The notes beneath the pieces are model-generated. The model was not told the origin of the DNA. It was given only the letters and a program-made list of their open reading frames with translations, and made no database searches. A program made the translations under genes and the position numbers. DNA of 64,000 nucleotides from an uncultured Actinomycetota bacterium. Lineage in GTDB: Bacteria > Actinomycetota > Thermoleophilia > RBG-16-64-13. Shown here in pieces: positions 35,244-61,517 of the stretch; the first letter of the stretch is position 1; each line of letters starts with the position of its first letter. The stretch covers positions 144,048-208,047 of the forward strand of contig CAWCLH010000019.1 in the NCBI GenBank assembly GCA_963796315.1. Direction: 5' to 3'.

Positions 35244-35247
35244 ATCG

Positions 35248-38067: not shown

Positions 38068-38725
38068 CGAGACAGAGGACACCCACGCCCTCTACCCGCT
38101 CGCCCTTCGGTTGAGCGGCCGGTCTTGCCTGGTCGTGGGCGGAGGATCGGTGGCGGCGAGGAAGACGGCCTCGCTGCTCGAGGCCGGCGCGCGGCTGCGG
38201 GTGGTCGCGCCCGAACTCGGGCCCGAACTGGCGGCGGATCCCGGACTGGGGGCCCGCTGGGGATGGCTGGAGCGGCCGTTCCTGAGCGAGGACGTCGACG
38301 GCTGCCTCTTGGTCGTCGCGGCCACCGACGACCGGGAGACCAACCGGCGGGTCGCCGAGGCTGCACGGGCGGCCGGGGCGCTGGCCAACGTCGTGGACGA
38401 CCCCGACGGGTCCGATTTCCACGTGCCCTCGGTCGTCCAGCGCGGCTCCCTCCAGTTGACCGTCTCCACCGGCGGCCGGGCGCCCTCCGTCTCCGCCCGT
38501 CTGCGTCGCCGCTTGGAGGAGGACTTCCCGCCCGTCTGGGCCGAGGTCGTGCGCGAGTTCGGGCGGGCGCGGGACGTGGCCCGCTCCGCCGGACTGGACC
38601 AGGCCTCGCGGCGGCAGCTCTCGCGGGCCCTGGCCGACCTGGACGTGGAGCGGCTGTTGTCGGAAGGCGGCCTGAACCGAGTCAAGGAAGCGGTGCGGGC
38701 ATGCACATCGCCGTACTCGGCGTAA
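38054..38725 (+). CDS. precorrin-2 dehydrogenase / sirohydrochlorin ferrochelatase (SirC / CysG N-domain-like)
   Basis: 223 aa with the Rossmann motif CLVVGGGSVAARKTASLLEAGARLRVVAPE. Confidence 0.8.
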   Translation: MTSTSETEDTHALYPLALRLSGRSCLVVGGGSVAARKTASLLEAGARLRVVAPELGPELAADPGLGARWGWLERPFLSEDVDGCLLVVAATDDRETNRRVAEAARAAGALANVVDDPDGSDFHVPSVVQRGSLQLTVSTGGRAPSVSARLRRRLEEDFPPVWAEVVREFGRARDVARSAGLDQASRRQLSRALADLDVERLLSEGGLNRVKEAVRACTSPYSA

Positions 38726-40023: not shown

Positions 40024-40039
40024 CCCAAGGAGCCCGGCC

Positions 40040-42568: not shown

Positions 42569-42596
42569 ATACTGCCTGCACCCGTGGGGGTGCAGG
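42565..42596 (+). promoter_or_regulatory. TGaTATACT extended -10-like element followed by a 9-bp stem-loop, between the HemD and HemB coding parts
   Basis: TG at 42565-42566, TATACT at 42568-42573, and hairpin CCTGCACCC-gtgg-GGGTGCAGG at 42575-42596. Confidence 0.3.
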
Positions 42597-42652
42597 ACCC
42601 GGCCCCGTGCCCTTGTGAGCGGATGCGCAACATCTCTGGAGGCGTACAGACC

Positions 42653-43714: not shown

Positions 43715-43716
43715 TC

Positions 43717-46518: not shown

Positions 46519-46592
46519 GCACGGACGACACCGAGATGAGGGATTCTTCGTCGTAAAAGGCGAGGAATTCGCTGTGTTACCATCGGTGCACC

Positions 46593-47684
46593 ATGCTGCT
46601 CCCCCACAAAGTCTACGTCGTCGATACCAACGCGTTGCTGAACGACCCGGAGGTCCTCTACTCCTTCTCGGGGGGCGAGGTCGTGGTGCCGTCGGTCGTG
46701 CTCAACGAGCTCGACCGGCTGAAGCGGCGGCGGACCGACCGGCGCGTGCGCTACCACGGCAGGAAGGCGACCCGGCTCCTCTTCGAGATCTCCCAGAACG
46801 GCAGGCTGCTTGACGGCGTGAGCCTGGCGAACGGGTCCGTGCTCCGGGTGGACGCGCGCGAGGAGTTCGGCGACCTGCCGGCAGAGCTGGACCTTCAGCG
46901 GACCGACGACCAGATCCTGGCGCTCGCCTACGCGATCAACCGAAAACCCGGTGTCCATACCACCCTGGTGACGAACGACCTCAACATGCTGTTGCGGGGA
47001 GAGGCGATCGGACTCGACGCCTACCGGTTCGAGGGCAAGCTGGATCAGCTCAAGGAGCAGCGCCGGACTCCGATGGAATGGTTCCGAGAGAAGGGCCTCG
47101 CTCTCGTGCTGGGCCTGCTCGCGCTCGCCTTCGCGATCAGTACGGCCTACCTCTACAGCACCCGGCCCGCGAACAGCGGCGTCTCGTCACTGCCTATCTC
47201 CGACAACCCCATCGCCATGCAGGCGTTGGGCGTCAGCCCCGAGGTGCTGGAGAAGCACTACCACGAGCTCCTGGCCAAGCAGCCCAAAGATGTCAAGACC
47301 CTGGTCAACCTGGCCGACCTGCTCTCGTACGAGCAGCGCTACCTGGAGGCCGTCGACTACTACCGCAAGGTCCTGGAGATACAGCCGTCCAACCCGATCG
47401 TGCGCACCGATCTGGGGATCTCACTCATGCGCCTGGACCGCTATCAGGAGGCCATCGAATCCTTCAGACAGGCGGTCGTCTACTCTCCCGAGGACGCGGT
47501 GATCCGCTACAACCTGGGCGTGGCCCTGGCCGTGCCCCGGCTCGGCGACCCGAAGGCGGCTATCGTCGAGCTCCAGCAGGCCCTTGCCCTCGCGGGTCAG
47601 GGCAGGGGCAGCATCCCCGTGGGGGACGCGCAGACGCTGATCAAGGAGCTCCAGACCCAGCTGGGGACCTCAAAGGGGACGTAG
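46593..47684 (+). CDS. PIN-domain (PhoH/YlaK N-terminal type) - TM helix - TPR repeat protein
   Basis: PIN: VYVVDTNALLNDPEVL...VVLNELD...TDDQILALAY...VTNDLNMLLRG. TM helix: GLALVLGLLALAFAISTAYLY. Followed by three or more TPR-like repeats. Confidence 0.7.
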   Translation: MLLPHKVYVVDTNALLNDPEVLYSFSGGEVVVPSVVLNELDRLKRRRTDRRVRYHGRKATRLLFEISQNGRLLDGVSLANGSVLRVDAREEFGDLPAELDLQRTDDQILALAYAINRKPGVHTTLVTNDLNMLLRGEAIGLDAYRFEGKLDQLKEQRRTPMEWFREKGLALVLGLLALAFAISTAYLYSTRPANSGVSSLPISDNPIAMQALGVSPEVLEKHYHELLAKQPKDVKTLVNLADLLSYEQRYLEAVDYYRKVLEIQPSNPIVRTDLGISLMRLDRYQEAIESFRQAVVYSPEDAVIRYNLGVALAVPRLGDPKAAIVELQQALALAGQGRGSIPVGDAQTLIKELQTQLGTSKGT

Positions 47685-47701: not shown

Positions 47702-48178
47702 TCAGCGGGCGGTGACGACGATGGTCAGCGCTCCCACCCCCGGCTTTGGTTCTCCGACCTGGATCGTGGCCCGCAGCGGTCCGACCTCTCGGCTGGCCCC
47801 CTGCAGCCGCGGCGGGTCGGACCCGGCCAGCGTCCAGCCCCGTGACTTCATGAAGCGGGCGACGGCGGCAGTCGTGTCCCCGGCGACGAGCGTGTCTCCA
47901 CGCTTCACCCGCAGGGTGCCCAAGGCGACCGCCCGAGCCCGCTCCTCGGCCGACAGAGAGCCGTCGGCCCGAAGTGCCGGCAGTCCGCCGGGCTCCCACG
48001 CGTAGCCGCGGTCGGCGAGCTCCGTCACGAGGGCCCCCATGTCCTCGGCGATCGCACGCAGCGGCGCCCGGTAGGCCTGCTGGATCGCGTCCAGCCCGGA
48101 GACCTTGACGTTGGTGACGTAGGTGACGTCGCGCGTGAACCACCACGCGAGAGAGAGCACCAGCAGCACACCGGCCAC
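47702..48178 (-). CDS. hypothetical membrane-anchored protein (N-terminus probably extends upstream without a canonical start)
   Basis: 158 aa; TM helix AGVLLVLSLAWWF comes right at the called start. The upstream in-frame sequence ...RRLPRRWSLYFRI looks like the missing positive N-region. Confidence 0.4.
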   Translation of the reverse strand: MAGVLLVLSLAWWFTRDVTYVTNVKVSGLDAIQQAYRAPLRAIAEDMGALVTELADRGYAWEPGGLPALRADGSLSAEERARAVALGTLRVKRGDTLVAGDTTAAVARFMKSRGWTLAGSDPPRLQGASREVGPLRATIQVGEPKPGVGALTIVVTAR

Positions 48179-48317
48179 GATGCGGAAGTACAGGCTCCAG
48201 CGACGCGGCAGCCGGCGGCCGAAGACGATCCAGGCGGACGTGTCGAGCCGGGGAGACGGCGCGTTCGGCCCGCTATCCTCCGGGCCGAGAGGGGTGTTGC
48301 TCAGAGCGGGTCCTGTC

Positions 48318-48506
48318 TCAGCGCGTGCCCGGCGGCTTCAGGAGGTGTCCGCCGATGATCGCCGCGGCGAAGCCCAGGACCGTGTAGAGAAGGAACTTCA
48401 GCAGCAGCACCTCGAGGAAGGCGAACACCGCGAGCACCCACAGGCTGATGCCCGCCAGGAGAAAGATCAGCCCGATGACGTTGGTGAAGTCGAATCGCGT
48501 GCTCAA
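48318..48506 (-). CDS. 62-aa two-TM membrane peptide
   Basis: This is the C-terminal part of an otherwise antisense 394-aa track ORF. The TTG 48506 start gives STRFDFTNVIGLIFLLAGISLWVLAVFAFLEVLLLKFLLYTVLGFAAAIIGGHLLKPPGTR. Confidence 0.4.
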   Translation of the reverse strand: MSTRFDFTNVIGLIFLLAGISLWVLAVFAFLEVLLLKFLLYTVLGFAAAIIGGHLLKPPGTR

Positions 48507-48547
48507 GATTCCTCGTCCCCTCCATGAGAAATGCCCGGTAGCCGGGG

Positions 48548-48575
48548 TGGACAGCCCTTGATTGGATGCTATAGT
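48548..48575 (+). promoter_or_regulatory. candidate promoter of the cytochrome operon (TGGACA-16-TATAGT with TGc extended -10)
   Basis: TGGACA at 48548-48553 and TATAGT at 48570-48575, in the divergent intergenic region about 200 nt upstream of ORF A. Confidence 0.3.
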
Positions 48576-48779: not shown

Positions 48780-49562
48780 ATGGCGAGCAAGCAACCCCTG
48801 CGGTTCAGGGTCTACGATGCCAGAGGACGCGCGGTCCGGGTCAAGAAGCGGTACCTCATCCTTCTTCTGGTCGGTCTGGCGACGGTCGGCGGAGCGTTCC
48901 TGTTCGTCCCGTTCTACGTGACGTCCACCCCGAGCTTCTGTTCCAACTGCCACGTGATGGACCCGTTCATCACGTCGTGGGAGCACAGCACTCACGCGAA
49001 GTTCCCGTGTGACAAATGCCATGTCAAACCGGGGGTCGTCAATCGCGTGGTCAACCAGTTCGCGGTGACCAAGAACGTCTATCTCGACGTCTTCGGCCAG
49101 GCCGAGATGCCGCACGAGATCCGGTCCGCCACGAATCAGAACTGCCTGCAATCGGGGTGCCACACCACGAACCGCATGGCGTCCACCTCGGGTGACCTCC
49201 TCATCCCGCACCGCGACCATGTGGAGATGCGGGGGCTGCAGTGCAAGGACTGCCACTTCAACGTGGTGCACACGCCGGAGGGAGGCACCCCGGTGCCGCC
49301 GATGGGCGTCTGCGCCATGTGCCACGACGGCAAGAAGGCGCCCAACGACTGTAAGACCTGTCACAAGAACCCACCCACGGCCTCCGAAGCGCACCCGAAC
49401 CTGGCCCTCGAGCAGCACGGAGCGCTGGCCAAGGGTCGCGAACGCGACTGCCTGCGCTGCCATCACGCCGACGCGTCCTTCTGCGAACGCACCGGCTGCC
49501 ACCCACAGGGGACGTTCCAGAAGCTGACGGATGAAGAGCGGATGCAGGAAAGGTTCCAGTAG
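48780..49562 (+). CDS. multihaem cytochrome c A: NapC/NirT/NrfH-like, N-terminal TM anchor, 6 CxxCH + 2 Cx4CH
   Basis: TM helix LILLLVGLATVGGAFLFVPFYV is followed by TSTPSFCSNCHVM...W..STHA..PCDKCH, the NapC/NirT hallmark. Variant sites are CLQSGCH and CERTGCH. An alternative GTG start lies at 48765. Confidence 0.85.
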   Translation: MASKQPLRFRVYDARGRAVRVKKRYLILLLVGLATVGGAFLFVPFYVTSTPSFCSNCHVMDPFITSWEHSTHAKFPCDKCHVKPGVVNRVVNQFAVTKNVYLDVFGQAEMPHEIRSATNQNCLQSGCHTTNRMASTSGDLLIPHRDHVEMRGLQCKDCHFNVVHTPEGGTPVPPMGVCAMCHDGKKAPNDCKTCHKNPPTASEAHPNLALEQHGALAKGRERDCLRCHHADASFCERTGCHPQGTFQKLTDEERMQERFQ

Positions 49563-49564
49563 TC

Positions 49565-50536
49565 GTGAAGTGGCCTCGTTTCCTCGCTATCCAGGACGAG
49601 TCGGGCCGCGCGGTCCGGGTCCGCTGGCGCTACCTTCTTCTGATCGCCGCGGCGCTGGTGGTGATCGGGGTGGCCGCCGTCTACCTGCCGGTCGCCATGA
49701 CCTCCACCCCCAGCTTCTGTCAGAACTGCCACCTCATGAAGGAGCCCACCGCCTTGTGGGAGGAGTCGACCCACGCCAACGTGAACTGCGTGCAGTGTCA
49801 CGTCGAGCCCGGCATCCTGAAGACGCTCGAGCACAAGGCCCTGTCGTACAAGGAGATCTACTTCAACTTCTTCGGCGAGGGCCGCATGCCGGAGGACATC
49901 GCGTTGCCGACCAACGCGGCCTGCCTCCAATGCCACAACCTGGACCGCACGGTATCCCCGGGCGGCGACATCAAGATCCCCCACCGGGAGCACGTGGAGA
50001 TGCGTAACCTCAAGTGCGCCGATTGCCACTTCAACGTGGTGCATACCCGGCGGGGCACTCCCGGTGGCGCGCCGCCCATGGACATCTGCTACATGTGCCA
50101 CGACGGCAAGCGGGCGCCGAACGCCTGCGACACTTGCCACACCACGCCGGTCAAGGACCTGCAGAAGCAGGGTCACCCGACCGACGCCCTCCAGAACCAC
50201 GGCAAGCTCGCCCAGGACCGGAGCGAAGACTGCAAGCGGTGCCACAGCGACCGCTCCCGCTTCTGTGAGAACTGCCACAACAAACCTCCCGCCAGCCACA
50301 AGGCGGCCACGTGGCGGTACACCCACAAGACCGTGGTCGAGACGAGCGGTCGCGCGACGTGCGAGGGTTGCCACAAACCCGAGTTCTGCCAGAAGTGCCA
50401 CAAGGTGCAGCATCCGCCCAACTGGAAGCAGGTGCATAAGGAGTTCGCGCAGGGTGGCGGCGATGCGTGCCAGGTATGCCATTCGCCCAACTTCTGTCAG
50501 GATTGTCACAAGGCCTCCGGAGTCACGACCAAGTAG
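49565..50536 (+). CDS. multihaem cytochrome c B: NapC/NirT-like paralog of A with C-terminal dihaem-repeat extension, 12 CxxCH
   Basis: TM anchor followed by TSTPSFCQNCHLM...STHANVNCVQCH. Collinear with A through CKRCH..FCENCH, then has two extra CxxCH-x4-CxxCH units. Confidence 0.88.
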   Translation: MKWPRFLAIQDESGRAVRVRWRYLLLIAAALVVIGVAAVYLPVAMTSTPSFCQNCHLMKEPTALWEESTHANVNCVQCHVEPGILKTLEHKALSYKEIYFNFFGEGRMPEDIALPTNAACLQCHNLDRTVSPGGDIKIPHREHVEMRNLKCADCHFNVVHTRRGTPGGAPPMDICYMCHDGKRAPNACDTCHTTPVKDLQKQGHPTDALQNHGKLAQDRSEDCKRCHSDRSRFCENCHNKPPASHKAATWRYTHKTVVETSGRATCEGCHKPEFCQKCHKVQHPPNWKQVHKEFAQGGGDACQVCHSPNFCQDCHKASGVTTK

Positions 50537-50549
50537 AGGGAGGATCGGC

Positions 50550-51515
50550 GTGCTTGGCAACAGGAAAAGTGCGGGCCCGCTAGCGAAAAGATTCACGCGC
50601 TCGACTGCGCGTGCGGTCGGGCTCGTGGTCGGCGCGCTCGTCGCCCTCCTCGTGCTGACCGGGACGGCCCTCGCGCAGGACGCGACCACCACCTCGGCCT
50701 CGACCACCACGACCACGGCCGCCGCCCCGGAGACGGACAACACGGCTCAGTGCCTGACCTGCCATCAGGAGACGTACCTGGGCAGCGTGAAGGACAGCAC
50801 GGGCACGAAGAACCTGCATATCGACGGCGCCGCCTACAAGGACTCCGCCCACGGGCTGCTCCCCTGCAACTCCTGCCACATCAACTTCAGCCACAATCCG
50901 CACCAGATGGTGAAGAACGCCGAGTTCTTCGCCAAGACCGCGGGAGAGGCGTGCCGCAATTGTCACGACGACCAGTTCGAGATGTACAAGCAGAGCTACC
51001 ACGGGAAGCTGACCAAGGGCGGCGTGGCGGACGGCACGGCGGCCCCCCTCTGCGTGGATTGCCACGGCGCGCACGCCGTGAAGAAGGTCAAGAGCACCGA
51101 GTACCGCCGGGAACTGCAGGATATCTGCGGAAAATGCCACGGTGGCCGCGAGTCCAGCTTCCTGGACACATACCATGGTAAGGCCATCACGCTCGGCCGC
51201 GACGCCGCCGCCACCTGCGTCGATTGCCACGGTTCCCACAGCATCCTGCCGGTCGCCGATCCCAAGTCCACTCTCTCCCAGGCGAACATCCTGCCAACGT
51301 GCCAGAAGTGTCACCCACAGGCTGAGAAGGGTTTCACCACCTTCCTGGTCCACGTCAAGCCCACGTCTCCCAAGGCCCCGCTGATCGTGTTCGTCGTGGC
51401 CATCTTCTACATCAGCATGATCGTGGCCGTGTTCGTCTTCGGGGGCACGCACACCCTGCTGTACATCTACCGCGGGCTGAAAGACGGGCTGTACTTCAAG
51501 AAGGGAGGGCACTGA
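50550..51515 (+). CDS. multihaem cytochrome c C: 7 CxxCH, signal peptide, Thr-rich linker, C-terminal TM helix
   Basis: GAGGGAGGA upstream of GTG 50550. Signal peptide AVGLVVGALVALLVLTGTALA-QD. Repeated (S/Y)xHG...CxxCHGxH pattern. C-terminal helix LIVFVVAIFYISMIVAVFVFGG. Confidence 0.85.
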   Translation: MLGNRKSAGPLAKRFTRSTARAVGLVVGALVALLVLTGTALAQDATTTSASTTTTTAAAPETDNTAQCLTCHQETYLGSVKDSTGTKNLHIDGAAYKDSAHGLLPCNSCHINFSHNPHQMVKNAEFFAKTAGEACRNCHDDQFEMYKQSYHGKLTKGGVADGTAAPLCVDCHGAHAVKKVKSTEYRRELQDICGKCHGGRESSFLDTYHGKAITLGRDAAATCVDCHGSHSILPVADPKSTLSQANILPTCQKCHPQAEKGFTTFLVHVKPTSPKAPLIVFVVAIFYISMIVAVFVFGGTHTLLYIYRGLKDGLYFKKGGH

Positions 51516-52393
51516 TGTCGACGGTCAGCGCCACCGCCACCAAGGTGGAGACCACGCACGCCGGAGTCGACACCCACCTGGTCTACCGCCGGTTCAGCGC
51601 CTTCCACCGGTTCAATCACTACCTGGTCATGATCAGCTTCTTCGGCCTGGTGCTGACCGGCATCCCGCTGAAGTTCAAGACCAGCTATTGGTCCGAGGTC
51701 ATCATGAACGCCGTAGGCGGCGTCTCGAACGCCGGCTTCGCCCACCGCACCTTCGCCGTGGTCAACATCCTGTACTTCGTGCTGGAAGGCGGCTACATGC
51801 TGTTGTACGTCGTGCGGAGGAGGGGCCCCGTCTTCGGTGCGGACTCCATCGTGCCCAGCCTGAAGGACTGGGAGGACCTCAAGGGCATGTTCAAGTGGTT
51901 CTTCGGTCGCGGCCCCAAGCCCCGCTTCAACCGGTTCACCTACTGGGAGAAGTTCGACTTCTGGGCTCTCTTCGCCGGGACCGTCTTGATCGGTGGCTCC
52001 GGCCTGATGATGTGGTTCCCCGAGCTCACCACGCGGTACCTGCCGGGGATCACGCTCAACGTGGCTTTGGTGCTCCACTCGAACGAGGCGTTCCTCGCCA
52101 CCGGAGTCATCTTCATCTTCGTGCACTTCTTCTCGGCGCACGGACGTCCCGAATCGTTCCCCGCCGACGAGGTCATCTTCTCGGGCTACCTTCCGCTGGA
52201 GCACTACATCGAGGACCGGCCGGCCGAGTACGTCAACCGGCTGAAGGCCGGCACCCTGGAGGAAGTGGTCACTACCCTTCCGGCGGAGGGTCGTCGCCGC
52301 GTGTTCAGCTGGGTGACGGCGGTGTTCACGGTCTTCGCCTTCCTGGCCTCGGCGTTCACCTTGCTCCTGATCATCTGGCCGCTCTTCTTCTAG
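51515..52393 (+). CDS. dihaem cytochrome b membrane subunit D (FdnI/HydC/PhsC-like)
   Basis: The start overlaps the stop of C (TGATG). RFSAFHRFNHYLVMISFFGLVLTG, FTYWEKFDFWALFAG and LHSNEAFLATGVIFIFVHFF carry the conserved His positions. Confidence 0.8.
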   Translation: MSTVSATATKVETTHAGVDTHLVYRRFSAFHRFNHYLVMISFFGLVLTGIPLKFKTSYWSEVIMNAVGGVSNAGFAHRTFAVVNILYFVLEGGYMLLYVVRRRGPVFGADSIVPSLKDWEDLKGMFKWFFGRGPKPRFNRFTYWEKFDFWALFAGTVLIGGSGLMMWFPELTTRYLPGITLNVALVLHSNEAFLATGVIFIFVHFFSAHGRPESFPADEVIFSGYLPLEHYIEDRPAEYVNRLKAGTLEEVVTTLPAEGRRRVFSWVTAVFTVFAFLASAFTLLLIIWPLFF

Positions 52394-52412
52394 GCGGAGC
52401 CGGCACGACGTT

Positions 52413-53444
52413 ATGAAAGACCGATTCCAGAGGCAGAAGGGGGATCTCATGGTGGGAACTTGCTCGGCCACGCGCGGCAAGACCGGGCATAGGCGTCATC
52501 GACATGAACGGGTGGCAGGGCTACTCGTCGTGACGCTGGCGCTGTTCCTGGCGATGACCGGCTCGGCGCTGGCCCTCGACCCGGAAGGCTGTCTGATCTG
52601 CCACGGCGATCCCAACTTCACCAATCCCAACCCCCGTGAGGGATATCCGACCTCCCTCTACGTCGACCCGGCCGCCTTCTCGAAGTCGGTCCACGGCAAG
52701 AACAAGTGTTCGAGCTGCCACAAGGGTTTCACCCTGTCGATGCCGCAGCATCAGACCGACCCCAGCAAGGACTACAAAGCGGTCGCCATCGAGGCCTGCG
52801 AGGGATGCCACAAGAAGGAGTTCATGGCCTACCAGACCTCGGCGCACGCGAAGATGTACTTCGGATCGGACACCGGTCCCATCTGCATCTCCTGCCACGG
52901 GTCGCACGAGATCAGGAAGGTGCAGCTGGGCCACGAGTCGGCGGAATTCAAGATGAGTATGGCCCGCGATTCCTGCGGCCGTTGCCATCAGGACAAGTTC
53001 GAGAAGGCGAAGAACGAGTTCCACTTCAAGGCGCTGTCCCTCGGCTATGCCCGGGCCGCCACGTGCTTCGACTGTCACGGTGCCCACGAGAACCTGGCGC
53101 TGAAGTCGGGTCAGGAAGAGACCGTAAAGCAGTGCCAGCAGTGCCATCCCGGCGCGACGAAGTCTTTCACCTACTTCCAGATGCACCTCGCCGACAACTT
53201 CGGCAACGCCTGGTGGGGCGTGCGTCTGGTCTACCGCTTCTTCAGCACGCTGCTCCTGGTGGTGCTGGTGACCGGCATCGCCTATACCACGGTCCACTTC
53301 CAGAAAGAGGTCCGCGAGGTCCTCGGCGTGTTCGGACGCGGAATGGGCCGGATGTTCGGCTACATCCGGGCGCTGGAAGACGAGTCGGTCCGCGAGAAAG
53401 TCAGCGACGAGCCGAGCCCGCAAACAGGACGCGCCGGGACGTGA
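52413..53444 (+). CDS. multihaem cytochrome c E: paralog of C, 7 CxxCH, signal peptide and C-terminal TM helix
   Basis: Signal peptide LLVVTLALFLAMTGSALA-LD, with the same SxHG...CxxCHGxH spacing as C. C-terminal helix FFSTLLLVVLVTGIAYTTV. An alternative start at 52449 has a better RBS. Confidence 0.85.
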   Translation: MKDRFQRQKGDLMVGTCSATRGKTGHRRHRHERVAGLLVVTLALFLAMTGSALALDPEGCLICHGDPNFTNPNPREGYPTSLYVDPAAFSKSVHGKNKCSSCHKGFTLSMPQHQTDPSKDYKAVAIEACEGCHKKEFMAYQTSAHAKMYFGSDTGPICISCHGSHEIRKVQLGHESAEFKMSMARDSCGRCHQDKFEKAKNEFHFKALSLGYARAATCFDCHGAHENLALKSGQEETVKQCQQCHPGATKSFTYFQMHLADNFGNAWWGVRLVYRFFSTLLLVVLVTGIAYTTVHFQKEVREVLGVFGRGMGRMFGYIRALEDESVREKVSDEPSPQTGRAGT

Positions 53445-53462
53445 TGAGAAGGGGGACAGCTG

Positions 53463-54227
53463 ATGGTCGACGTGACCCATTCCTTCGCGGAGCCGACCGC
53501 TGCCACGGCCGTGACGGTCGAGAAGCCGACGACCCACTACGTCCGCTTCTCCCCGTACCTCCGCCTCAGTCACTTCATCATGATGACCACCTTCATCGGG
53601 TGTGCGCTCACCGGCCCTCCGCTCAAGTACAGCTACGACGTGTGGGCCCAGACGCTGATGGGCTTCTGGGGCGGCGTGCAGAACGCGGGACTCATCCACC
53701 GCATCATGGCCGGGTTCATGATGGGCGACTTCTTCGTCCATGCCCTCTACCTGGGTTACTGGATCGTCATCAGGAAGGCCAAGGTATTCGGCCCGGACTC
53801 GATCATGTTCCGCAAGAAGGACCTGAAGGATTTCCTCGGGATGGTGCTGTGGTTCTTCGACCGAGGCCATCGGCCTCGGTTCGAACGGTTCACCTTCTGG
53901 GAGAAGTTCGACTGGTTCGCCGTCTTCTGGGGCATCGCGATGATCGGCACTTCGGGGTTCATGCTCTGGTTTCCGACGATCACCACCACCGTGCTCTCGG
54001 GCATCTTCCTCAACGTCGCCCGAGTCATTCACGGGGACGAGGCGATCCTGGCCATCGGCTGGATCCTGTTCGTCCATCTCTACAACTCCCATCTCCGGAT
54101 GAACGTCTTCCCGATGGACCCGGTCATCTTCACCGGGAAGATGCCGATCGAGCACCTCAAGCACGACAAGCGCGCCTGGTACGACCGGCTGGTGGCCGAA
54201 GGCAAGATCAGGCCGGAGGAGCAATGA
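53463..54227 (+). CDS. dihaem cytochrome b membrane subunit F (paralog of D)
   Basis: RFSPYLRLSHFIMMTTFIGCALTG, FTFWEKFDWFAVFWG and IHGDEAILAIGWILFVHLY. Confidence 0.8.
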   Translation: MVDVTHSFAEPTAATAVTVEKPTTHYVRFSPYLRLSHFIMMTTFIGCALTGPPLKYSYDVWAQTLMGFWGGVQNAGLIHRIMAGFMMGDFFVHALYLGYWIVIRKAKVFGPDSIMFRKKDLKDFLGMVLWFFDRGHRPRFERFTFWEKFDWFAVFWGIAMIGTSGFMLWFPTITTTVLSGIFLNVARVIHGDEAILAIGWILFVHLYNSHLRMNVFPMDPVIFTGKMPIEHLKHDKRAWYDRLVAEGKIRPEEQ

Positions 54228-55136
54228 TCCCGCGCCTCATCAGGCTCGGGCGCGCGAGGCTTCACGACCGGCCGGTGCGGCGAGGCTCGACGCTGGGCCC
54301 CGCTCGCGGTCCTCGTGGGTCTGGTGTTCGTCGCCCTCGTGCTGGCGGGCTGCAGCTCTGCCAACTCGCAGACGGGCACGACTGTCGACTTGACGAAGAA
54401 CGTCACCGCGGCCGAGCAGCAGACGCCCGGCGCCCCGTCCCCGAAGAATCCGTCGGAGTTCATCTCACTGTGTGCCAACTGCCACGACCGCCTGGACACG
54501 CCGCTCGCCTGGCGCCAAGAGCGCAAGCTGGTGTTCAACCACGCGGCTCATTTCGCGAAAGGTATCCGCTGCGTGGCCTGTCACCAGGAATTCCCCCATA
54601 AGCCGGGGAAGACCCTCCACGTCTCCGTCGAAACGTGCTTCATGTGCCACGGCGCCATGCACGGCGCGGAGGGCATTCTGGCGCCGACGAGTTGCGACAC
54701 CTGCCACACCCGCGACATCGCCACCATCACGCCCGATCACCAGCGGGCGGATTGGCTGTTGGTCGGCGGCTCCAAGCTGGCTTTGCACAGCGTCGAGGGC
54801 AAGCAGCGCCCGCTCTACTGCCGCATGTGTCACGAGCAGAGTTTCTGCAGCGACTGCCACAAGATCGAGATGCCGCATCCGGCCGGTTGGGTCACGTCCG
54901 GCCATCAACCGGTGGCCACTTCCGACCGGACCTCTTGCGTCCGGTGCCATCCCGAGAAGAACTTCTGCAACGACTGCCATCACAAGGCTCTGCCGAAGCT
55001 CGCCGATTGGAGCCAGCAGCACAAGGTGGTCGCGGTCAGCAAGGGTCCCGAGAGCTGCTACACGTGCCACAAGCCGCTGTTCTGCTCCGCCTGCCACGTG
55101 AAGGTGGGCCAGCACCGCGGAACGCTCGGGAAGTAG
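54224..55136 (+). CDS. multihaem lipoprotein cytochrome c G: 10 CxxCH; +1 frame change in the signal-peptide n-region (about 54270-54295) as assembled
   Basis: ATG 54224 overlaps the stop of F (ATGA) and reads MIPRLIRLGRARL.... The main frame continues RRWAPLAVLVGLVFVALVLAGC (lipobox LAGC). A c3/c7-like FNHAAH..CVACH module is followed by three CxxCH-x4-5-CxxCH units. The intact part alone is 54315-55136. Confidence 0.8.
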
Positions 55137-55169
55137 TCGCGCAGATCGTGGAGGGAAGGGGAGCGCACA

Positions 55170-56006
55170 GTGGATAGACGAGGACGCGCTACAGGCCTCG
55201 GTCTCACAGTCAGCCTGGTGCTGCTGCTCCTTCTGCTTGTCCTGGTGAGTGGGTGCGGAAGCGGACCCTCCGACGCCACGGCCGCGGCCACCACGACGAC
55301 CACGGGGTTGGTGGTACCCCTCAAGAACTCGACCTGCCTCTCGTGCCACAAGGACTTCGAGCAGGTGGTCGCACGAGAGGACCAGAAGAAGTTCTCGCAC
55401 TCGCTCCATCTGCAGCAGCGCCTGGACTGCGTCACCTGTCACGCGGATGTGGGTCATGCCGGGGGGGTGCTGCCGCCACAGTCGCTCTGCGACGACTGCC
55501 ACGGCCTGCCCATGCCGCATCCGGCTGATTTTCAGACGACACACGGCAAGATCGTGGTCAAGAACGGCGACGCGCTCTGCGCTCGTTGCCACAACGTCTA
55601 TCTTCACTGTCAGGAGTGTCACGGGCTGCAGATGCCTCACCCGGCCAACTGGAAGCAGAAGCACGGCACCATCGCTCAGCCGGAGATGGAGACCTGCGTC
55701 ACCTGCCACCCGAAGACCTTCTGTCTCTCGTGCCACCCGGTGGAGATGCCCCACCCGACCAACTGGACGGCGAAACACGGCCTGACCGTGAACGCCAAAG
55801 GGTCGGCCACCTGCACCATGTGTCACGAGCCGAAGGATTGCACCGCGTGCCACGGTCTTCCCATGCCACACCCTCAGGACTGGGGGACCGGACACCAGAG
55901 CGCAGCCGCCAAGGACCGTGAGGGATGCATGCTGTGCCACGACCGGAAGGACTGCGAGCAGTGCCACGCACTCCATAAGACCCACGTCCAGGGAGGAGGT
56001 GCCTGA
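55170..56006 (+). CDS. multihaem lipoprotein cytochrome c H: 11 CxxCH, four MPHP repeats
   Basis: Lipobox LVSGC, Thr-rich linker AAATTTTTG, and a FSHSLH..CVTCH module. It also has four dihaem units and four CH-x3-MPHP-x2-(W/F) tails. Confidence 0.88.
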   Translation: MDRRGRATGLGLTVSLVLLLLLLVLVSGCGSGPSDATAAATTTTTGLVVPLKNSTCLSCHKDFEQVVAREDQKKFSHSLHLQQRLDCVTCHADVGHAGGVLPPQSLCDDCHGLPMPHPADFQTTHGKIVVKNGDALCARCHNVYLHCQECHGLQMPHPANWKQKHGTIAQPEMETCVTCHPKTFCLSCHPVEMPHPTNWTAKHGLTVNAKGSATCTMCHEPKDCTACHGLPMPHPQDWGTGHQSAAAKDREGCMLCHDRKDCEQCHALHKTHVQGGGA

Positions 56007-56947
56007 TGACCTCCACGCCCAAGCGTCGGATCGCCGGGCTCATCGGCGCCGTCCTTCTCCTGGCGGTCCTGGTCCTCGTCCTGGGCATCGTCACGGGACG
56101 CGCCGACCTTCGGGCGGCCACCTCATCGACGAAGGGTCAGAAAGGGGACAGCCTGACCGCCCTCCCCACCGATACCGCCAACAGCAAGGCGGGCGCCCCG
56201 ACGGAATCCGGAGGGGAGCCGTTCCGCACCTGTATCGCCTGCCACCCGACGTACGAGCGCAAGCCCGACCCGACCGGCGACCTGATCTTCTCGCACCAGC
56301 GGCACACCCTGCAGGGCATAGCCTGCGCCACCTGCCACAAGCCACCGCTGGGCCACTTCGGCCAGCCCGCGCCGCTCATGACCACCTGCCTCTCCTGCCA
56401 CCAGGGAGACACAGCGCCGAACGACTGCAAGAAGTGCCACCGCAACTTGGAGGCGATCGCTCCGGGCTTGGGCAAGCAGGTGGTGCACCTGAAGCCGGAC
56501 GCCAAGACCCGTCGCACGTGCGAGAAGTGCCACGACGTCAACGTCTGGTGCGAACAGTGCCATGGAGTGGCCATGCCCCACCCGGTGGCCTGGAAGCAGA
56601 TCCACGGCGGCTACGCGCTGAAGGACCCGCAGGTCTGCGAGAAATGCCATCAGAGCAAGGACAAGACCTTCTGCGTGCGGTGCCACGGCGTGGAGATGCC
56701 GCACCCGGCGTACTGGTACTCCAACCATGGCGACATCGCCCGCACCAACAGCCAGACCTGCACGACCTGCCATCCGAACCGTTCGTTCTGCCAGGATTGT
56801 CACCATGCCGGCTTCTCGCCCACCGCGGCCTGGGCTTCCTCTCAGCACGGGCAGGCGGTAGCCAAGAAGGGGACCCAAGCGTGCTTCGTCTGCCACGACC
56901 AGACGTTCTGCGAGCGCTGCCATCCGACCGGCAAGTACAAGAAGTAG
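56006..56947 (+). CDS. multihaem cytochrome c I: N-terminal TM anchor, 12 CxxCH
   Basis: The start overlaps the stop of H (TGATG). TM helix LIGAVLLLAVLVLVLGIV, a FSHQRH..CATCH module, and four dihaem units, two of them with an MPHP tail. Confidence 0.88.
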   Translation: MTSTPKRRIAGLIGAVLLLAVLVLVLGIVTGRADLRAATSSTKGQKGDSLTALPTDTANSKAGAPTESGGEPFRTCIACHPTYERKPDPTGDLIFSHQRHTLQGIACATCHKPPLGHFGQPAPLMTTCLSCHQGDTAPNDCKKCHRNLEAIAPGLGKQVVHLKPDAKTRRTCEKCHDVNVWCEQCHGVAMPHPVAWKQIHGGYALKDPQVCEKCHQSKDKTFCVRCHGVEMPHPAYWYSNHGDIARTNSQTCTTCHPNRSFCQDCHHAGFSPTAAWASSQHGQAVAKKGTQACFVCHDQTFCERCHPTGKYKK

Positions 56948-57069
56948 ACCGACGGGCGGCAGAATGGGTGATCCGGCGGCCCGCCTGACGGTTTGCGACC
57001 GCCGAGAGAATCGTGGACAATCGACGCCGTCATCGAGGAGGGATTGGAATGAGGGAAGGAGGTGAGTTC

Positions 57070-58025
57070 ATGCTGCACAAGCGAGTGACGTTCCTAGGGC
57101 TGTTGCTCACGGTGGGCCTGATCGTCGCCCTGGTCGTAGCCCTAGGTGGCTGCACCTCGGCGAACGAGACGAGCACCACGACGGAGCAGTCCTCGACCAC
57201 CGCGCCGGGCGAGACCGTGACGACGACGCCGGCAGTCACGGGCACGACGACGGCGCCGACAGGCACGACGACGGCCAGGCGGCGGGGGAGAGACCACCAG
57301 TACTCCCGGCACCGGAGAGTCCGTCGCGCCCGTGTCGGACAACTTCAAGATCTGCACGCAGTGCCACAGCGATTTCAACGCTTTCCTGGCCACCAGTAAG
57401 GTGCTGACGAAGAACTTCAGCCACGCGGTGCACCTGAACAAGGGGTACAAGTGCGAGGACTGCCACGTGGTCCCCACGCATCAACCCGATCGGATCGTGC
57501 CACCCACCCATGCTGAAATGCTTCCAGTGTCACAGCCAGGAAGCCGGAGCCAAGGCACCCGGTGCGTGCGGTACCTGCCATCCTCCCAGCTTCCCGCTGG
57601 TGCCCGCCAACCATAATCAGCAGACGTGGTTGCCGGTGAACGTGACGACTCCGACCAAGACGGTGGATTCCAATCACTCAGCCGAAGCGAAGAAGAACCG
57701 GGACTACTGCGCGATGTGTCATGCGGCGAAGTTCTGCAACGACTGCCACAAGACCCAGATGCCGCACCCGGCTGACTGGCAGCAGGTCCACCCGCAGCAG
57801 GTGAAGTCGTCGGGATCCGCGAGCTGCACTCGTTGCCACCCGGCCAAGTACATCTGCGAAGACTGCCACCACACCGGTTACAAGCCCGGTACGCCGTGGA
57901 CGCAGCAGCATCCGCCCATCGTGAAGACGAACGGCGCCGACGGATGCTTCAAGTGCCATAACCCGCTGACCTGCGCCCACTGCCATGTCACGGGTCAGTT
58001 CAAGGACATCGCGCCGAGCGGCTAG
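57070..58025 (+). CDS. multihaem lipoprotein cytochrome c J: 10 CxxCH; split over three frames as assembled (changes near 57277-57289 and 57500-57509)
   Basis: - GGAGG lies 8 nt upstream of ATG 57070.
- Lipobox ALGGC and a long Thr-rich linker.
- Second frame: GETTSTPGTGESVAPVSDNFKICTQCH...FSHAVH..CEDCH.
- Third frame: MLKCFQCH...CGTCH..., followed by three dihaem units. Confidence 0.75.
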
Positions 58026-58166: not shown

Positions 58167-59159
58167 CTACTCCCCGCTGGCGATCGCCTTGTGCTGCTTC
58201 GCGCGGTAGAGGCTGGCGTCCGCCTCTTGGAGAAGCTGCTCTGTCTCCCGCCCATCCTCGGGGCAGGCGGCACAGCCGGCGCTGAGGCGCAGCGTCAGCA
58301 ACGAGGAGTCCACCTTGAGCTTGGTGGTCAGGAGGGACTCGGCGATCCGGTCGCCGACGACTCTGACCACGTCCTTCGACGTCTCCGGCATGAGGATGAT
58401 GAACTCGTCACCCCCGAAGCGCGCGCAGATGTCGACGTCCCGCACGTTCAGCCCCATCATGGTGGCCGCGTGGCGCAGCGCGAGATCCCCCGCGCTGTGG
58501 CCGTAGGTGTCGTTGATGCCCTTCAAGTTGTCCAGGTCGATCATCAGGAGGGCGAACGTGTGGCGGTACCGCTTGTAGAGCTCGATGTGCCGTTCCAGCT
58601 CCTGGAGCATGTAGCGGCGGTTGGAGAGGCCGGTCAGCGCGTCCGTGTGGGCCAGACGGTCGAGCTCGCTGCTGGCGGACTTGTAGTACGTCTCCATGGA
58701 GGACTGGGTCACGGCCTGCAGGCCCTGCCGCAGACGCATCACCAGAAGCAGGAGCTCTCGATCCTCTTTCCGCAGGCTCTCGATCAGCAGGCTCCAGATG
58801 GCGTCTTCGAGCGCGAGCATGCTCTGGGACAGGGTGATCAGACCCTGAGAGCCGCTGGCCTGGATCTCCCCCAGGCTGGCGGCTTGGTGGTAGAAGGATC
58901 CGCCCGGGGAGAACTCGGCGAGCGTGTCGTCGTCGACCAGGGCGTTCGCCAGCCCGCCCACGAGATCGACCGACAGCCGGATGCTCTCCTGGGTGGGAAA
59001 ACGCTCGAGCGTCCCCAGATCCTCGATCTGCGCGATAATGCGAGCCAGCCAGCTCTTGGTGATGCGGAGACGGTGCTCTTCCAGGACCCGGCGTCCCTTC
59101 AGGAAGAGGGGCGAAGCGAGGGGGGAGGTCTCCTCATCGCGGATCGCGTTATCGCTCAC
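58167..59159 (-). CDS. diguanylate cyclase (GGDEF domain) with N-terminal helical sensor region
   Basis: 330 aa. DALTGLSNRRYM...FALLMIDLDNLKGINDTYGHSAGDLAL...ICARFGGDEFIILMPE. Confidence 0.88.
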   Translation of the reverse strand: MSDNAIRDEETSPLASPLFLKGRRVLEEHRLRITKSWLARIIAQIEDLGTLERFPTQESIRLSVDLVGGLANALVDDDTLAEFSPGGSFYHQAASLGEIQASGSQGLITLSQSMLALEDAIWSLLIESLRKEDRELLLLVMRLRQGLQAVTQSSMETYYKSASSELDRLAHTDALTGLSNRRYMLQELERHIELYKRYRHTFALLMIDLDNLKGINDTYGHSAGDLALRHAATMMGLNVRDVDICARFGGDEFIILMPETSKDVVRVVGDRIAESLLTTKLKVDSSLLTLRLSAGCAACPEDGRETEQLLQEADASLYRAKQHKAIASGE

Positions 59160-59233
59160 TCGTCTACCTTTGCGTCAAGATTAAAAATATGCACTCACAC
59201 TATAAGCGATTGGAGTGCGGCGACGCAAACACT

Positions 59234-59431
59234 ATGAGAATCCTTCATGTGAACAAACGGTACCCTCCACACGTCGGCGGGGTGGAGGTCCACGTGCGAG
59301 ATCTGGCTCGCGCCCAGTCGCGCTTCGACGGTATCACGGTGGAGGTCCTGACGGTATCGGAGGGCGCTCGTGGGCGGGGACCGGCGGACCACGCGGCCCT
59401 CGTCAAGACGTGGGCGGGGCCGTGCCGATAG
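59234..59431 (+). pseudogene. 5' remnant of a GT4 glycosyltransferase gene (about 65 codons, then stop)
   Basis: MRILHVNKRYPPHVGGVEVHVRDLARAQ is a typical GT4 N-terminus. The ORF stops at 59431, no continuation was found in other frames, and the next gene starts at 59503. Confidence 0.5.
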
Positions 59432-59502
59432 GCTTGGTGCACGAGAGCGGAGCATCTGGCCACCGGGCCGGCCGCTTCCACGGGCTGGGAGGCCTGTCAC
59501 TG

Positions 59503-60295
59503 ATGACCGCGTCCGGTTCCCTTGCGACCTTGAGCGTCGCCGAGCTTCTGCAGATCGCCGCCCTCTCCCGCAAGCGGGGGACGCTGCGCCTGCGCTTCTC
59601 CACCGGGCGGAGGATCGTCGTGTACGTCCACGACGGCAATCTGGGCGGACTCACCGACACGGCCCGCACCTGGCACCTGGGCGATCTGCTGGCTTCCACC
59701 GGCCGTCTGGCCGACGACGAGAGGAAGCGGCTTCTGATCGACGCCCGTCTCCGTGGCAAACGGCTGGGCCAGCTGCTGGTCGAGCGGGGGCATGTCTCCC
59801 GCGACGAGTTGGAGGGACTGCTCCGCAGGCTGATCCTGCATTCGCTTCTCTACGCCGTCGAGAACGAGTCCCAGGGGGAGTTCGAGCTTGAGGTCGGCCA
59901 CGTGCAGGCGACGTCGGTCACCTTCCCCATCGCCGACTTCCTGATCGAGATCAGCTCCTGCATCGACGAGTTCGCCCGACTGCGAGCCGAGCTCGGCGCC
60001 GGTTCGGGGGCCATCGCTCTGGAGCCGGGACTGGACCTGGCGGACACGCTCCACCGCTTGAGCTACCGCCAAGTCCAGGTGGTCGCCCAGGTAGACGGCC
60101 GCAAGACGCCCATGCAGAGTCGCGGCGGCCGTCGACCTCTCACCGGGCGAGACCCTCGAGCTGCTGGGCGGGCTCGCCGCCGAGGGACTGATCGTGTGGG
60201 CGAGCTGGGCCGGAAACAGGCCCGTCCGTCCGTTGGCCGATATCGCCCGCCTCCCCCGCCCCGCACCCGCGGCGGCGCGGGGAGCCCTGCCCTGA
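59503..60295 (+). CDS. DUF4388-domain protein; +1 frame change near 60110-60130 as assembled
   Basis: The N-terminus GSLATLSVAELLQIAALSRKRGTLRL is the DUF4388 hallmark. The C-terminal winged-helix-like part reads in the next frame (AAAVDLSPGETLELLGGLAAEGLIVW), with its stop at 60293-60295. Confidence 0.65.
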
Positions 60296-60367
60296 CCGAT
60301 CGCCCAGGGTCCGTCTGCTACACTGCAGGAGAGGCGGCAGCGTCGGGCACGTGGGGGTGCTCGGGCT

Positions 60368-61517
60368 GTGGGGCCGTCCTCTGGCGCGGTCAGCGGCGGC
60401 TCGGGCGAGGGACCTTTGCGGGTCGGATTTGACGCACGGACCATAGAATCAAGTGGGATCGGGACCTACTCCCGCAATCTCCTGCTTCACTTCGCCGAGA
60501 CGGACGTCGACCTGGTCGTCTTCTGCCAGGACTCCAACCGTCGCTTGGTGCCCGCGGGGAAGAACTTCTCCTTCGTCACCGCCAACCTGAGCCCGCGTTC
60601 TCGCAGCAGCAGCGGCGCGTTCGGCTCGGTCGTCCGCGATGCCCAGGTCGACCTGCTGCACGTCCCCAGCCACCTGGGCCCGACGGGCGCGCAGGTGCCG
60701 TTGGTGGCCACCATCCATGACGTCATCCCGCTGATCTACCCCCGAAGCATCCGCAACCCGCTGGAGCGGAGGCGATACCGGCGGCAGGTCGAGCAGACGG
60801 TGAACGAAGCGTTCAGGGTGATCACCCCGTCGCAGATCTCGAAGTCGACCCTCACCGCGTACGCGGGGGTGGCGCCGGGCAAGGTGCGCGTGATCCACAA
60901 CGGCGTCTCCCGGACCTTCCGGCCCGTCGAGGAGGACGCCGTGCTGGAGGAGGTGCGGCACCGCTACGGCCTGCCCGAGCGGTTCGCGCTGTGGATCGGT
61001 GAGTTCCGCCCCCAGAAGAACCTGGAATTCCTGCTGGCTGCCTGGGCGTGACGTCGGCCGCTCGTCTTCGCAGGCACCGGCCCTTGTCCTCGCCGGCACC
61101 CAGGATGGGGAGTTCCGCAAGATCCGGCGGGAAGTCACCCGCCGCGGTCTCGATGGTCGGGTGATGTTTCCGGGCTTCATCAAGGAAGTCGACCTGGCTG
61201 CGGTGTACTCGGCGGCATCGGTCTTCGTGTTCCCGTCGCTCTACGAGGGCTTCGGCCTGCCGCCACTCGAAGCCATGGCCTGCGGTACCCCCTGCGTCGT
61301 CTCCAACTCCTCGTCGCTCCCCGAGGTGACGGGCCGGGCGGCGATGCTCTTCAACCCCACGTCGGTGGAGCAGTTCGTGGAGTGCATGACCCGGGTGATG
61401 GAGGACGAGGACCTCTATGAGAAGCTGCGCCGCGAAGGTCTGCGGCAGTCGGCGCTCTTCAGCTGGAACAAGGCGGCCGCGCAGACGCTCGAGGTGTACC
61501 GAGCCGCACTGGCGTGA
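60368..61517 (+). CDS. GT4 family glycosyltransferase; +1 frame change near 61040-61050 as assembled
   Basis: N-domain: [23 protein letters not shown]...ATIHDVIPL. The C-domain is in the next frame: [10 protein letters not shown]...[35 protein letters not shown]. Confidence 0.8.

Follow-up and report, generated by a model that had tools for sequence, protein, structure and literature searches.

We analyzed a window of 64,000 nucleotides (nt) from a contig of an uncultured Thermoleophilia bacterium (Actinomycetota). At positions 48780 to 58025 the window contains ten co-directional genes, here named A to J, every one of which encodes a cytochrome: eight are c-type, and two (D and F) are cytochromes b. 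We propose that this operon probably encodes an all-cytochrome conduit that connects the menaquinone pool with redox partners beyond the cytoplasmic membrane, the likeliest being acceptors that are insoluble or macromolecular. It would be a Gram-positive form of the metal-respiring wires of Geobacter and Thermincola. The evidence comes from motif counts, family and structure comparisons, and homologous loci (numbered L001 onward), and it bears on an earlier reading of the same DNA, referred to below as the original prediction.

A six-frame scan of the window identified 75 CxxCH haem-binding sites on the plus strand between 48939 and 57972, and just 3 such sites, in any frame, outside the operon. 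Translated open reading frames (ORFs) place 6 of them in A, 12 in B, 7 each in C and E, 10 in G, 11 in H, 12 in I, and 10 in J; A has two additional CxxxxCH sites. Because both variant sites align with canonical CxxCH motifs of the paralogue B and are kept in an orthologue, 77 is a fair count of haem c sites. The same motif count detected neither CxxCK nor CxxxCH in the operon ORFs. Gene starts were set by start codons preceded by Shine-Dalgarno (SD)-like sequences, and the widest junction is a gap of 122 nt (I/J), at the other extreme from F and G, which overlap by 4 nt (ATGA). The haem counts of the original prediction (75 canonical and 2 variant sites) were thereby reproduced exactly, gene by gene, as were its range of junctions and its claim that CxxCK is absent. 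An exact look-up of the window's own proteins matched no record.

By their sequences, A and B are members of the NapC/NirT superfamily. Both match PF03264 above the gathering score (49.2 bits for A and 65 bits for B; cut-off, 24.1), and they are 49% identical to each other. Each has one predicted N-terminal transmembrane (TM) helix (residues 30 to 48 in A and 26 to 44 in B), followed immediately by a first haem motif of the form CxxCHxM (CSNCHVM in A, CQNCHLM in B), the Met of which is invariant in orthologues. In a search of PDB sequences, residues 20 to 163 of B matched NrfH of Desulfovibrio (2j7a_C; E, 2.3e-11). The NrfH-like N terminus, the TM helix, and the invariant CxxCHxM motif agree with the original description of A and B as quinol-entry-type proteins. 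The haem count of A is the same in its orthologues, and B has 12 haems in 8 of 10 orthologous loci from metagenome-assembled genomes (MAGs), with lower counts in L015 and L016, both of which are frame-broken. The NCBIfam NrfH model, which has a cut-off of 134.2 bits, gives A and B scores of 55.9 and 59.3. We rejected the assignment of A and B as NrfH, NapC, or TorC orthologues, since their scores fall far under the NCBIfam equivalog cut-offs and the operon has no cognate reductase. An NrfHA nitrite reductase was likewise excluded, there being no CxxCK site and no Cytochrom_C552 domain.

D and F are members of the FdnI-type cytochrome b superfamily. For PF01292, D scores 32.2 bits (gathering score, 30.1) and F scores 18.7 bits, below it; the two proteins are 46% identical. 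The Ni_hydr_CYTB and formate dehydrogenase gamma subunit models hit both D and F, in line with the earlier view of D and F as polytopic dihaem cytochromes b. His 35 (helix 1), His 77 (helix 2), and His 188 and 204 (helix 4) of D are invariant in 60 of 60 sequences, and His 37, 79, 190, and 205 of F are invariant in the 9 sequences compared. This 1+1+2 arrangement is the ligand pattern by which FdnI of formate dehydrogenase N (Fdn-N) holds two stacked b haems. An AlphaFold2 (AF2) model of D, built on the same number of sequences (60), has a predicted local distance difference test (pLDDT) score of 86.8. Its sole significant match among PDB structures (Foldseek) is FdnI (1kqf_C; E, 1.4e-5; target-normalized TM-score, 0.77), whereas a search of PDB sequences with D returned nothing. 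The fold and the four invariant His residues thus support the FdnI-type assignment made for D in the original prediction. No catalytic gene of a formate dehydrogenase or hydrogenase lies in or beside the operon, either here or in the annotated relatives.

Each cytochrome b gene follows the gene of a heptahaem cytochrome c, C or E. These two are 32% identical over 301 residues, and the C-terminal TM helix of each carries an invariant His (H294 in C, counting from 50571, and H295 in E). Both give weak, partial matches to the DmsE family (for C, 42.9 bits against a cut-off of 192.2). The best PDB sequence match of C is 28pb (E, 1.6e-7), an entry titled "Cytochrome c"; C also matches OcwA (6i5b), over only ~40 residues (E, 4e-5). 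A full HMMER search with C found 3553 representatives at E ≤0.001 and 420 at ≤1e-30. Cluster look-ups of the top representatives gave no cultured or named organism, but the top matches include proteins of 557 to 606 amino acids (aa). One of these, P0343 (606 aa; Thermoleophilia MAG, on the contig of L037), reads end to end as C (41% identity) and then D (43%). A 595-aa ORF with 7 haem motifs in another Thermoleophilia locus (L030, 10825 to 12612) is a fusion of the same C-D type. Their natural occurrence as a single protein argues well for C and D acting together, like the corresponding parts of the fused protein CbcL, and it supports the pairing of C with D in the original prediction.

The four remaining proteins, G to J, are 27 to 36% identical to one another (35% for I and H) and 30 to 32% identical to residues 117 to 319 of B. 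Judged by these alignments, G to J are in effect copies of B that lack the membrane helix and the two haems nearest to it. In the C-terminal half of each, tandem modules of ~39 residues hold two haems apiece (~20 residues per haem), the fullest form of which is CxxCH-x4-7-CxxCH-x3-MPHP-x2-W-x3-H; H has four such modules in tandem, with x4-5 between the paired motifs and the PHP...W tail on three. Each of the eight c-type proteins has about as many invariant His residues outside the motifs as it has haems, as expected of electron-transfer haems with bis-His ligation. Orthologues keep the same kind of predicted anchor (a lipobox in G, H, and J and an N-terminal TM helix in I). A low-complexity linker separates this anchor from the first haem, and its length class is kept across eleven genomes: 24 to 39 residues in H, 34 to 58 in G, 44 to 52 in I, and 44 to 66 (Thr-rich) in J. 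The conserved anchors and disordered linkers bear out the claim that four 10- to 12-haem proteins are tethered. G has 10 haems in all orthologues. An AF2 model of H has a pLDDT of 77, and PDB sequences gave only weak matches to H, from ActA of alternative complex III. No operon protein matches S-layer, SH3, or NHL-propeller families. An Hmc- or Tmc-type sulfate respiration complex was rejected, as genes for Fe-S and NrfD subunits are missing from the operon and the sole match to HmcA, from G, is weak (E, 6e-4).

We determined the distribution of the operon in a scan that included one genome per GTDB species. B has 82 detectable homologues in a collection of 5.8 billion proteins; those with names come from Thermoleophilia, Actinobacteria, Coriobacteriia, and Candidatus Aquicultorales MAGs and from one organism named just "bacterium." The complete A-to-J order occurs in L006 to L016, from MAGs labelled Thermoleophilia, Gaiellales, Actinomycetes, or Actinomycetota (among them Soudan_30, LH_M23/24, FR_37, and SKS1.bin6), and it is the same throughout L001 to L016, which include at least 11 species-level MAGs. 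Haem counts in the orthologues are identical (6+2/12/7/7/10/11/12/10 for the eight c-type proteins in order), except for a few genes with lower counts in the frame-broken L015 and L016. About half of the alignment columns are invariant in A and B, and about one-third are invariant in G to J.

Other Thermoleophilia have a reduced cluster that consists of B, C, D, a 10- to 16-haem protein, a second B-like protein (B'), and a 13- to 15-haem protein; in some cases it is duplicated, and in some C and D are fused. According to the MAG names, its carriers appear to originate from Lac Pavin sediment, palsa, permafrost, and Danish soils. In L018 (6988 to 20753), a reduced cluster (B, C, D, 16-haem protein, B', 13-haem protein) stands between UbiD/UbiA and UbiX/MqnC-type/MqnA-D-type genes. 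Location amid genes of the futalosine pathway of menaquinone synthesis provides a direct genomic link to the quinone pool. B-like proteins also occur in other company: L088, a more distant relative, combines them with a 4Fe-4S/NrfD pair.

Two further gene sets were observed in relatives. In L086 (5048 to 7966), from one lineage with the full operon, A to J are closely preceded by genes for a NapC/NirT multihaem protein (420 aa), a Rieske protein, and a cytochrome b that is split; this set forms a bc-type complex with a multihaem protein where cytochrome c1 would be. Cultured Neobacillus species have an A'/B' pair (10 and 12 haems; 26 to 37% identity), a tetratricopeptide repeat (TPR) protein, an NHL propeller, and 6- and 7-haem proteins. 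This cluster is found in L045 (8535 to 16464; Neobacillus novalis) and in ~35 further Neobacillus/Bacillus loci (L043 to L085), downstream of a SecA-like gene. We found no mention of multihaem cytochromes in the literature on Neobacillus.

A to F make up four membrane modules of two kinds, each of which is known elsewhere to exchange electrons with menaquinone. In the proposed conduit, A and B would oxidize menaquinol at the outer face of the membrane, and C-D and E-F would move electrons across the membrane via two b haems to the heptahaem cytochrome c. All four membrane modules would feed G to J, which as mostly bis-His relay proteins would be held at the outer face by lipid or TM anchors on flexible tethers of graded length (~25 to 66 residues). 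The resulting tethered chain or layer of haems may extend into the wall zone and pass electrons onward to Fe(III) or Mn(IV) minerals or humic matter. G to J themselves probably evolved from the haem-repeat part of B. For the FdnI-type modules, export would spend membrane potential and import would build it, so with several modules in parallel the cell could respire with acceptors of differing potential, an argument also made for ImcH, CbcL, and CbcBA of Geobacter (bioRxiv 10.1101/2021.04.15.440034). The placement of the operon in a monoderm host rests on the taxonomy (Actinomycetota/Thermoleophilia). Of the modular reading in the original prediction, with quinol-level entry modules feeding tethered proteins, the architecture stands and is strengthened by the comparisons above; quinol oxidation, outward direction, surface reach, the identity of the acceptor, and the envelope type are parts that we infer.

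Several points weigh against this proposal. All close carriers are uncultured MAGs, and J and G are not intact in this assembly. The model of H has no PDB fold match with an E value below 1 (Foldseek), so its wire-like geometry is putative. All four of the large cytochromes are membrane tethered and none has a wall-binding domain (SLH, LPxTG, or SH3), so contact with the exterior is putative as well. Other parts of the genome could encode a terminal reductase, and the window holds genes for biosynthesis of molybdenum/tungsten cofactor (Moco). Finally, FdnI-type b subunits place the quinone site on the cytoplasmic side, and by analogy with Fdn-N such an arrangement would work equally well for inward flow, conserving energy.

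A more far-reaching form of the proposal is that the operon encodes a complete, bidirectional, wall-spanning ladder of tethered cytochromes specific to monoderm Actinomycetota. The B-derived proteins G to J would then stand at graded distances from the membrane (linkers of ~25, 40, 45, and 66 residues) and form a stacked relay with no porin, pilus, or secreted filament. The NrfH-type modules would serve electroneutral export, and the FdnI-type modules would serve either import that generates proton motive force or export that consumes it. We consider this full form rather unlikely. If true, extracellular electron transfer (EET) would have a structural solution of a new type, with a new dihaem-repeat fold (~20 residues per haem) that has no solved counterpart.

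The direction of electron flow could also be the reverse of the one that we propose. G to J would then take up electrons, whether from a syntrophic partner, from reduced minerals or humics, or from cathode-like surfaces, and C-D and E-F would reduce menaquinone at the cytoplasmic side as FdnI-like redox loops and build proton motive force; flow in the opposite direction might be left to A and B. D, with its FdnI fold and His pattern, is consistent with this reading, as FdnI carries electrons from the periplasmic side to a menaquinone site on the cytoplasmic side. One actinobacterial MAG with RuBisCO has been reported from the Soudan iron formation (PMC8042283), and a Soudan MAG, which may or may not be the same one, has the operon. 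The anatomy of the proteins does not discriminate between directions, since bis-His multihaem chains are reversible. NrfH/NapC-type proteins are typically quinol oxidases, and Fe(II) at neutral pH should be too oxidizing to reduce menaquinone without an input of energy. The haem b synthase AhbD encoded upstream of the operon, together with the absence of oxidase genes from the window, fits an anaerobic respirer. We regard inward flow as unlikely and retain the outward conduit as the preferred reading.

We looked for catalytic partners around the operon and its homologues. In relatives with annotated neighbors, the genes within 10 kb include neither a porin nor a catalytic subunit of the molybdopterin, NrfA, HAO, or Cu type. 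Carboxydothermus has an NrfH-NrfA pair ~5 kb away, as a separate unit. There is no porin gene at the locus itself, and there is none in the gene tables of L002 or L086. Thus, the statement in the original prediction that nothing catalytic lies in or beside the operon was upheld, no linked soluble-substrate reductase emerged in the annotated relatives, and the locus has no porin-cytochrome arrangement. These results bear on another explanation, in which the operon encodes a general extracytoplasmic network that distributes electrons to soluble-substrate reductases encoded elsewhere, as CymA does in Shewanella; sulfur compounds, nitrite, dimethyl sulfoxide or trimethylamine N-oxide, and metalloids are candidate substrates. 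NapC/NirT proteins classically serve such reductases, one multihaem cluster of Parvivirga includes a molybdopterin oxidoreductase (PMC9686372), and the Moco biosynthesis genes and Moco riboswitch of the window indicate that the genome encodes molybdoenzymes. Set against this are the lack of a reductase within 10 kb in the annotated relatives, the lack of a CxxCK site, and the scale of the system: 77 haems and four tethered 10- to 12-haem proteins would seem to far exceed the needs of a hub. We judge this explanation, too, to be unlikely and prefer the conduit to extracellular acceptors.

Two operon genes have broken reading frames. J is read in three frames; the shifts adjoin GGGGG at 57284 to 57288 and fall in ccacccaccc at 57500 to 57509, and alignment to the L002 orthologue, which is intact at 317 aa, shows that each shift acts like a single added base. 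In G, the SD-preceded ATG at 54224 overlaps the F stop codon (ATGA), and the lipoprotein signal continues in another frame before 54297. Frame-corrected J has 10 of 10 CxxCH motifs, every orthologue-invariant His, and no internal stop codons. It is no more diverged than its neighbors, with 72% identity to L001, as compared with 65 to 72% for G, H, and I. Programmed frameshifting in J was rejected, since the orthologues are read in a single frame. Outside the operon, hemC is also split over two frames (40335 to 40399), as is the GT4 glycosyltransferase gene (~60894 to 61051), and the L002 counterparts of both are intact. The ENA metagenome contig of L001, the nearest relative, has the same kind of fragmentation in D to F. 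This pattern suggests that indel errors are spread through the assembly. Because hemC and the GT4 gene are broken too while the orthologues are intact, and because a cell making 77 c-haems cannot do without hemC, the breaks in G and J are probably assembly indels rather than signs of decay, a concern raised with the original prediction. Despite the three frame breaks inside the operon, it is very improbable that the operon is decaying and the conduit nonfunctional, given the broken but essential hemC, the broken GT4 gene, the single extra bases of J in or beside G/C runs, its retained motifs and identity, and the similarly fragmented contig of L001.

Positions of the operon genes and of other features are listed in Table 1.

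Table 1. Genes of the cytochrome operon and other features of the 64-kb window
Feature	Positions	Strand	Description
A	48780..49562	+	NapC/NirT/NrfH-type membrane cytochrome; one N-terminal TM helix; 8 haems
B	49565..50536	+	NapC/NirT/NrfH-type membrane cytochrome; 12 haems; NrfH-like tetrahaem N terminus, then paired-CxxCH dihaem repeats
C	50550..51515	+	Heptahaem cytochrome c; N-terminal signal or anchor; C-terminal TM helix
D	51515..52393	+	FdnI-type dihaem cytochrome b; four-helix core plus fifth C-terminal TM helix
E	52413..53444	+	Heptahaem cytochrome c; N-terminal signal or anchor; C-terminal TM helix; paralogue of C
F	53463..54227	+	Dihaem cytochrome b; paralogue of D without fifth helix
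G	54224..55136	+	Decahaem lipoprotein; lipobox LAGC; linker of ~39 residues
H	55170..56006	+	Undecahaem lipoprotein; lipobox VSGC; linker of ~26 residues
I	56006..56947	+	Dodecahaem protein; N-terminal TM anchor; linker of ~44 residues
J	57070..58025	+	Decahaem lipoprotein; lipobox LGGC; 66-residue Thr-rich linker
Sigma-70-like promoter candidate	48548..48575	+	TGGACA-16-TATAGT with TG extension; ~200 nt 5′ of A; consensus match alone
ccsB, hemA, hemC, cobA-hemD, hemB, ahbD	36811..44892	+	Conserved upstream context; ccsB is for System II cytochrome c biogenesis
ahbD	43708..44892	+	Radical SAM/SPASM protein AhbD, haem b synthase; after hemB
PIN-TPR gene	46557..47684	+	PIN-TPR protein
Small membrane protein gene	47702..48337	-	No family match
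Small membrane protein gene	48321..48545	-	No family match
GGDEF gene	58167..59174	-	Diguanylate cyclase
DUF4388/PatA_N gene	59215..60432	+	DUF4388/PatA_N protein
EAL gene	23261..24649	+	EAL protein, further upstream
Moco riboswitch	30937..31063	+	Directly 5′ of the ABC permease gene
ABC permease gene	31171..31899		Tungstate/molybdate-type permease
MobA-MobB, MoaA, MoaC-MOSC-MoaB fusion	32962..36810		Near the Moco riboswitch

The promoter candidate was one of 2 consensus matches found, against 1.1 expected; a divergent candidate lies on the minus strand. No known RNA element was detected in the operon leader of ~200 nt (Rfam). The G+C content is 62.5 to 65% in the operon (window 48001 to 58000) and 68 to 71% in the flanks; the low value may reflect either a Cys-, His-, and Lys-rich composition or a separate history.

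The conserved flanks of the operon consist of hemA-hemC-cobA/hemD-hemB-ahbD-NlpC/P60-PIN/TPR upstream and GGDEF and GT4 genes downstream. Of the flanking genes named in the original prediction, ino1, dnaK, dnaJ, and GT4 were found. TIGR03144 matches at the upstream ccsB/ahbD block with 201.8 bits, and the order from hemA to ahbD is the same in L001 and L002, the flanks of which end before ccsB. AhbD was identified with TIGR04545 (502.8 bits; cut-off, 500). Together with the cobA-hemD fusion, it suggests a sirohaem-dependent, O2-independent haem pathway in an actinobacterium, and this neighboring O2-independent enzyme fits an anaerobic lifestyle. In the same region, positions 39707 to 43714 read as one stop-free frame of 1335 codons.

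The PIN-TPR gene and the two genes for small membrane proteins are kept directly 5′ of the operon in MAGs. The TPR part of the PIN-TPR protein weakly resembles the apocytochrome-chaperone TPR of CcmH/CycH, and a TPR protein is also encoded in the Neobacillus cluster. The GGDEF gene is kept downstream of the operon in L001, L002, and L086 and is followed by the DUF4388/PatA_N gene in L002-type loci. Together with the EAL gene, it raises a possible link through cyclic di-GMP to surface attachment. The score of the Moco riboswitch, 55.4 bits, exceeds its gathering score of 36.

Soils, sediments, and the subsurface harbor Thermoleophilia in abundance, but the class is almost wholly uncultured, and its respiration is largely uncharted. 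A strictly conserved 77-haem operon without a catalytic subunit would imply that some of its members take part in the cycling of iron, manganese, or humics or in electron uptake; the names of the relatives' MAGs point to iron formation, ferruginous lake sediment, peat, and aquifers. How electrons move across the thick wall of monoderm bacteria is also poorly understood. Tethered cytochromes of graded reach, derived by duplication from a NapC-type protein, would be a concrete and testable model for wall crossing, and split and fused modules of heptahaem c and dihaem b would extend the CbcBA/CbcL principle beyond Desulfuromonadia. The distant A/B-like pairs of cultured Neobacillus and Carboxydothermus could make these organisms tractable hosts for studying the family.

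The operon resembles several known systems in part. Like the tetrahaem quinol dehydrogenases NrfH, NapC, NirT, and CymA, A and B have an N-terminal TM helix, a PF03264 domain, and a first motif of the CxxCHxM form. They differ in having 8 and 12 haems instead of 4 or 5, owing to a C-terminal dihaem-repeat extension, and in having no NrfA, Nap, or Tor partner at the operon. D is similar to FdnI of Escherichia coli Fdn-N in its fold and in its His ligands for two stacked b haems, and its partner, like the C-terminal anchor of FdnH, has a C-terminal TM helix. In contrast to Fdn-N, however, that partner is a heptahaem cytochrome c and not an Fe-S protein, there is no catalytic molybdoenzyme, and D has a fifth helix.

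Like the porin-cytochrome conduits of Shewanella (MtrCAB) and Geobacter, the operon would provide decahaem-class bis-His wires beyond the cytoplasmic membrane, and C and E have weak, partial similarity to the DmsE/MtrA family. It differs from them in having no β-barrel porin gene, in DmsE scores of at most 42.9 bits against the cut-off of 192.2, and in the presumed envelope type. We place the operon outside the Nrf, Nap, Tor, Fdn, Mtr, and Hmc systems, since it lacks their defining partners or falls short of their score cut-offs.

Among Gram-positive bacteria with EET (Thermincola potens, Carboxydothermus ferrireducens, and Parvivirga/Anaerosoma), multihaem cytochromes without a porin are a shared feature. 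For 77% of its length H aligns, at 36% identity, with P0241, a 459-aa NapC/NirT cytochrome of the Fe(III) reducer C. ferrireducens; like H and B, this protein belongs to a family that combines NapC with paired CxxCH motifs. Matched by its length, P0241 appears to be Ga0395992_02_135863_137242, which has been described as a putative quinol oxidase that is constitutively produced (PMC7829351). Relatives of the 459-aa protein occur in multihaem clusters of the cultured Actinomycetota Anaerosoma tenue and Parvivirga hydrogeniphila, the latter an obligate Fe(III) reducer (PMC9686372). Multihaem clusters have also been reported in actinobacterial MAGs (PMC7399161). Unlike these Gram-positive systems, the operon has two bc modules, all of its large cytochromes are lipid or TM tethered, and its gene content and order are different. 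In the search with C, made at a threshold that would list OcwA, the similarity to OcwA is confined to ~40 residues.

The original prediction overstated the novelty of the operon, given the clusters already known in cultured Actinomycetota (PMC9686372) and in MAGs (PMC7399161) and the published heptahaem-c/dihaem-b architecture of CbcBA. In the literature, we found no description of the operon itself, of its ten-gene conservation in Thermoleophilia, of C-D fusions, or of graded tethers, and a paper on the Soudan iron formation (PMC8042283) does not discuss the operon.

Another parallel is with Geobacter. CbcA/CbcB have been described as a four-helix dihaem cytochrome b next to a seven-haem cytochrome c whose C-terminal TM domain supplies a His (bioRxiv 10.1101/2021.04.15.440034). 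On the basis of that description, C-D and E-F can be likened to CbcBA, each with a His-bearing C-terminal TM helix on the heptahaem protein and an adjacent dihaem b protein. The C-D fusions of sister lineages resemble CbcL, in which c and b are fused in one protein, and both Geobacter, with CbcBA, CbcL, and the NapC/NirT-like ImcH, and the operon have several parallel quinol modules in one organism. There are also differences: D itself holds all four haem-ligand His residues, whereas three are described for CbcB; all modules sit in one operon; and the host, as a presumed monoderm, would have neither periplasmic triheme shuttles nor a porin-cytochrome complex. By this analogy, the operon would work like a Gram-positive counterpart of the inner-membrane entry gates of Geobacter, joined to a tethered relay.

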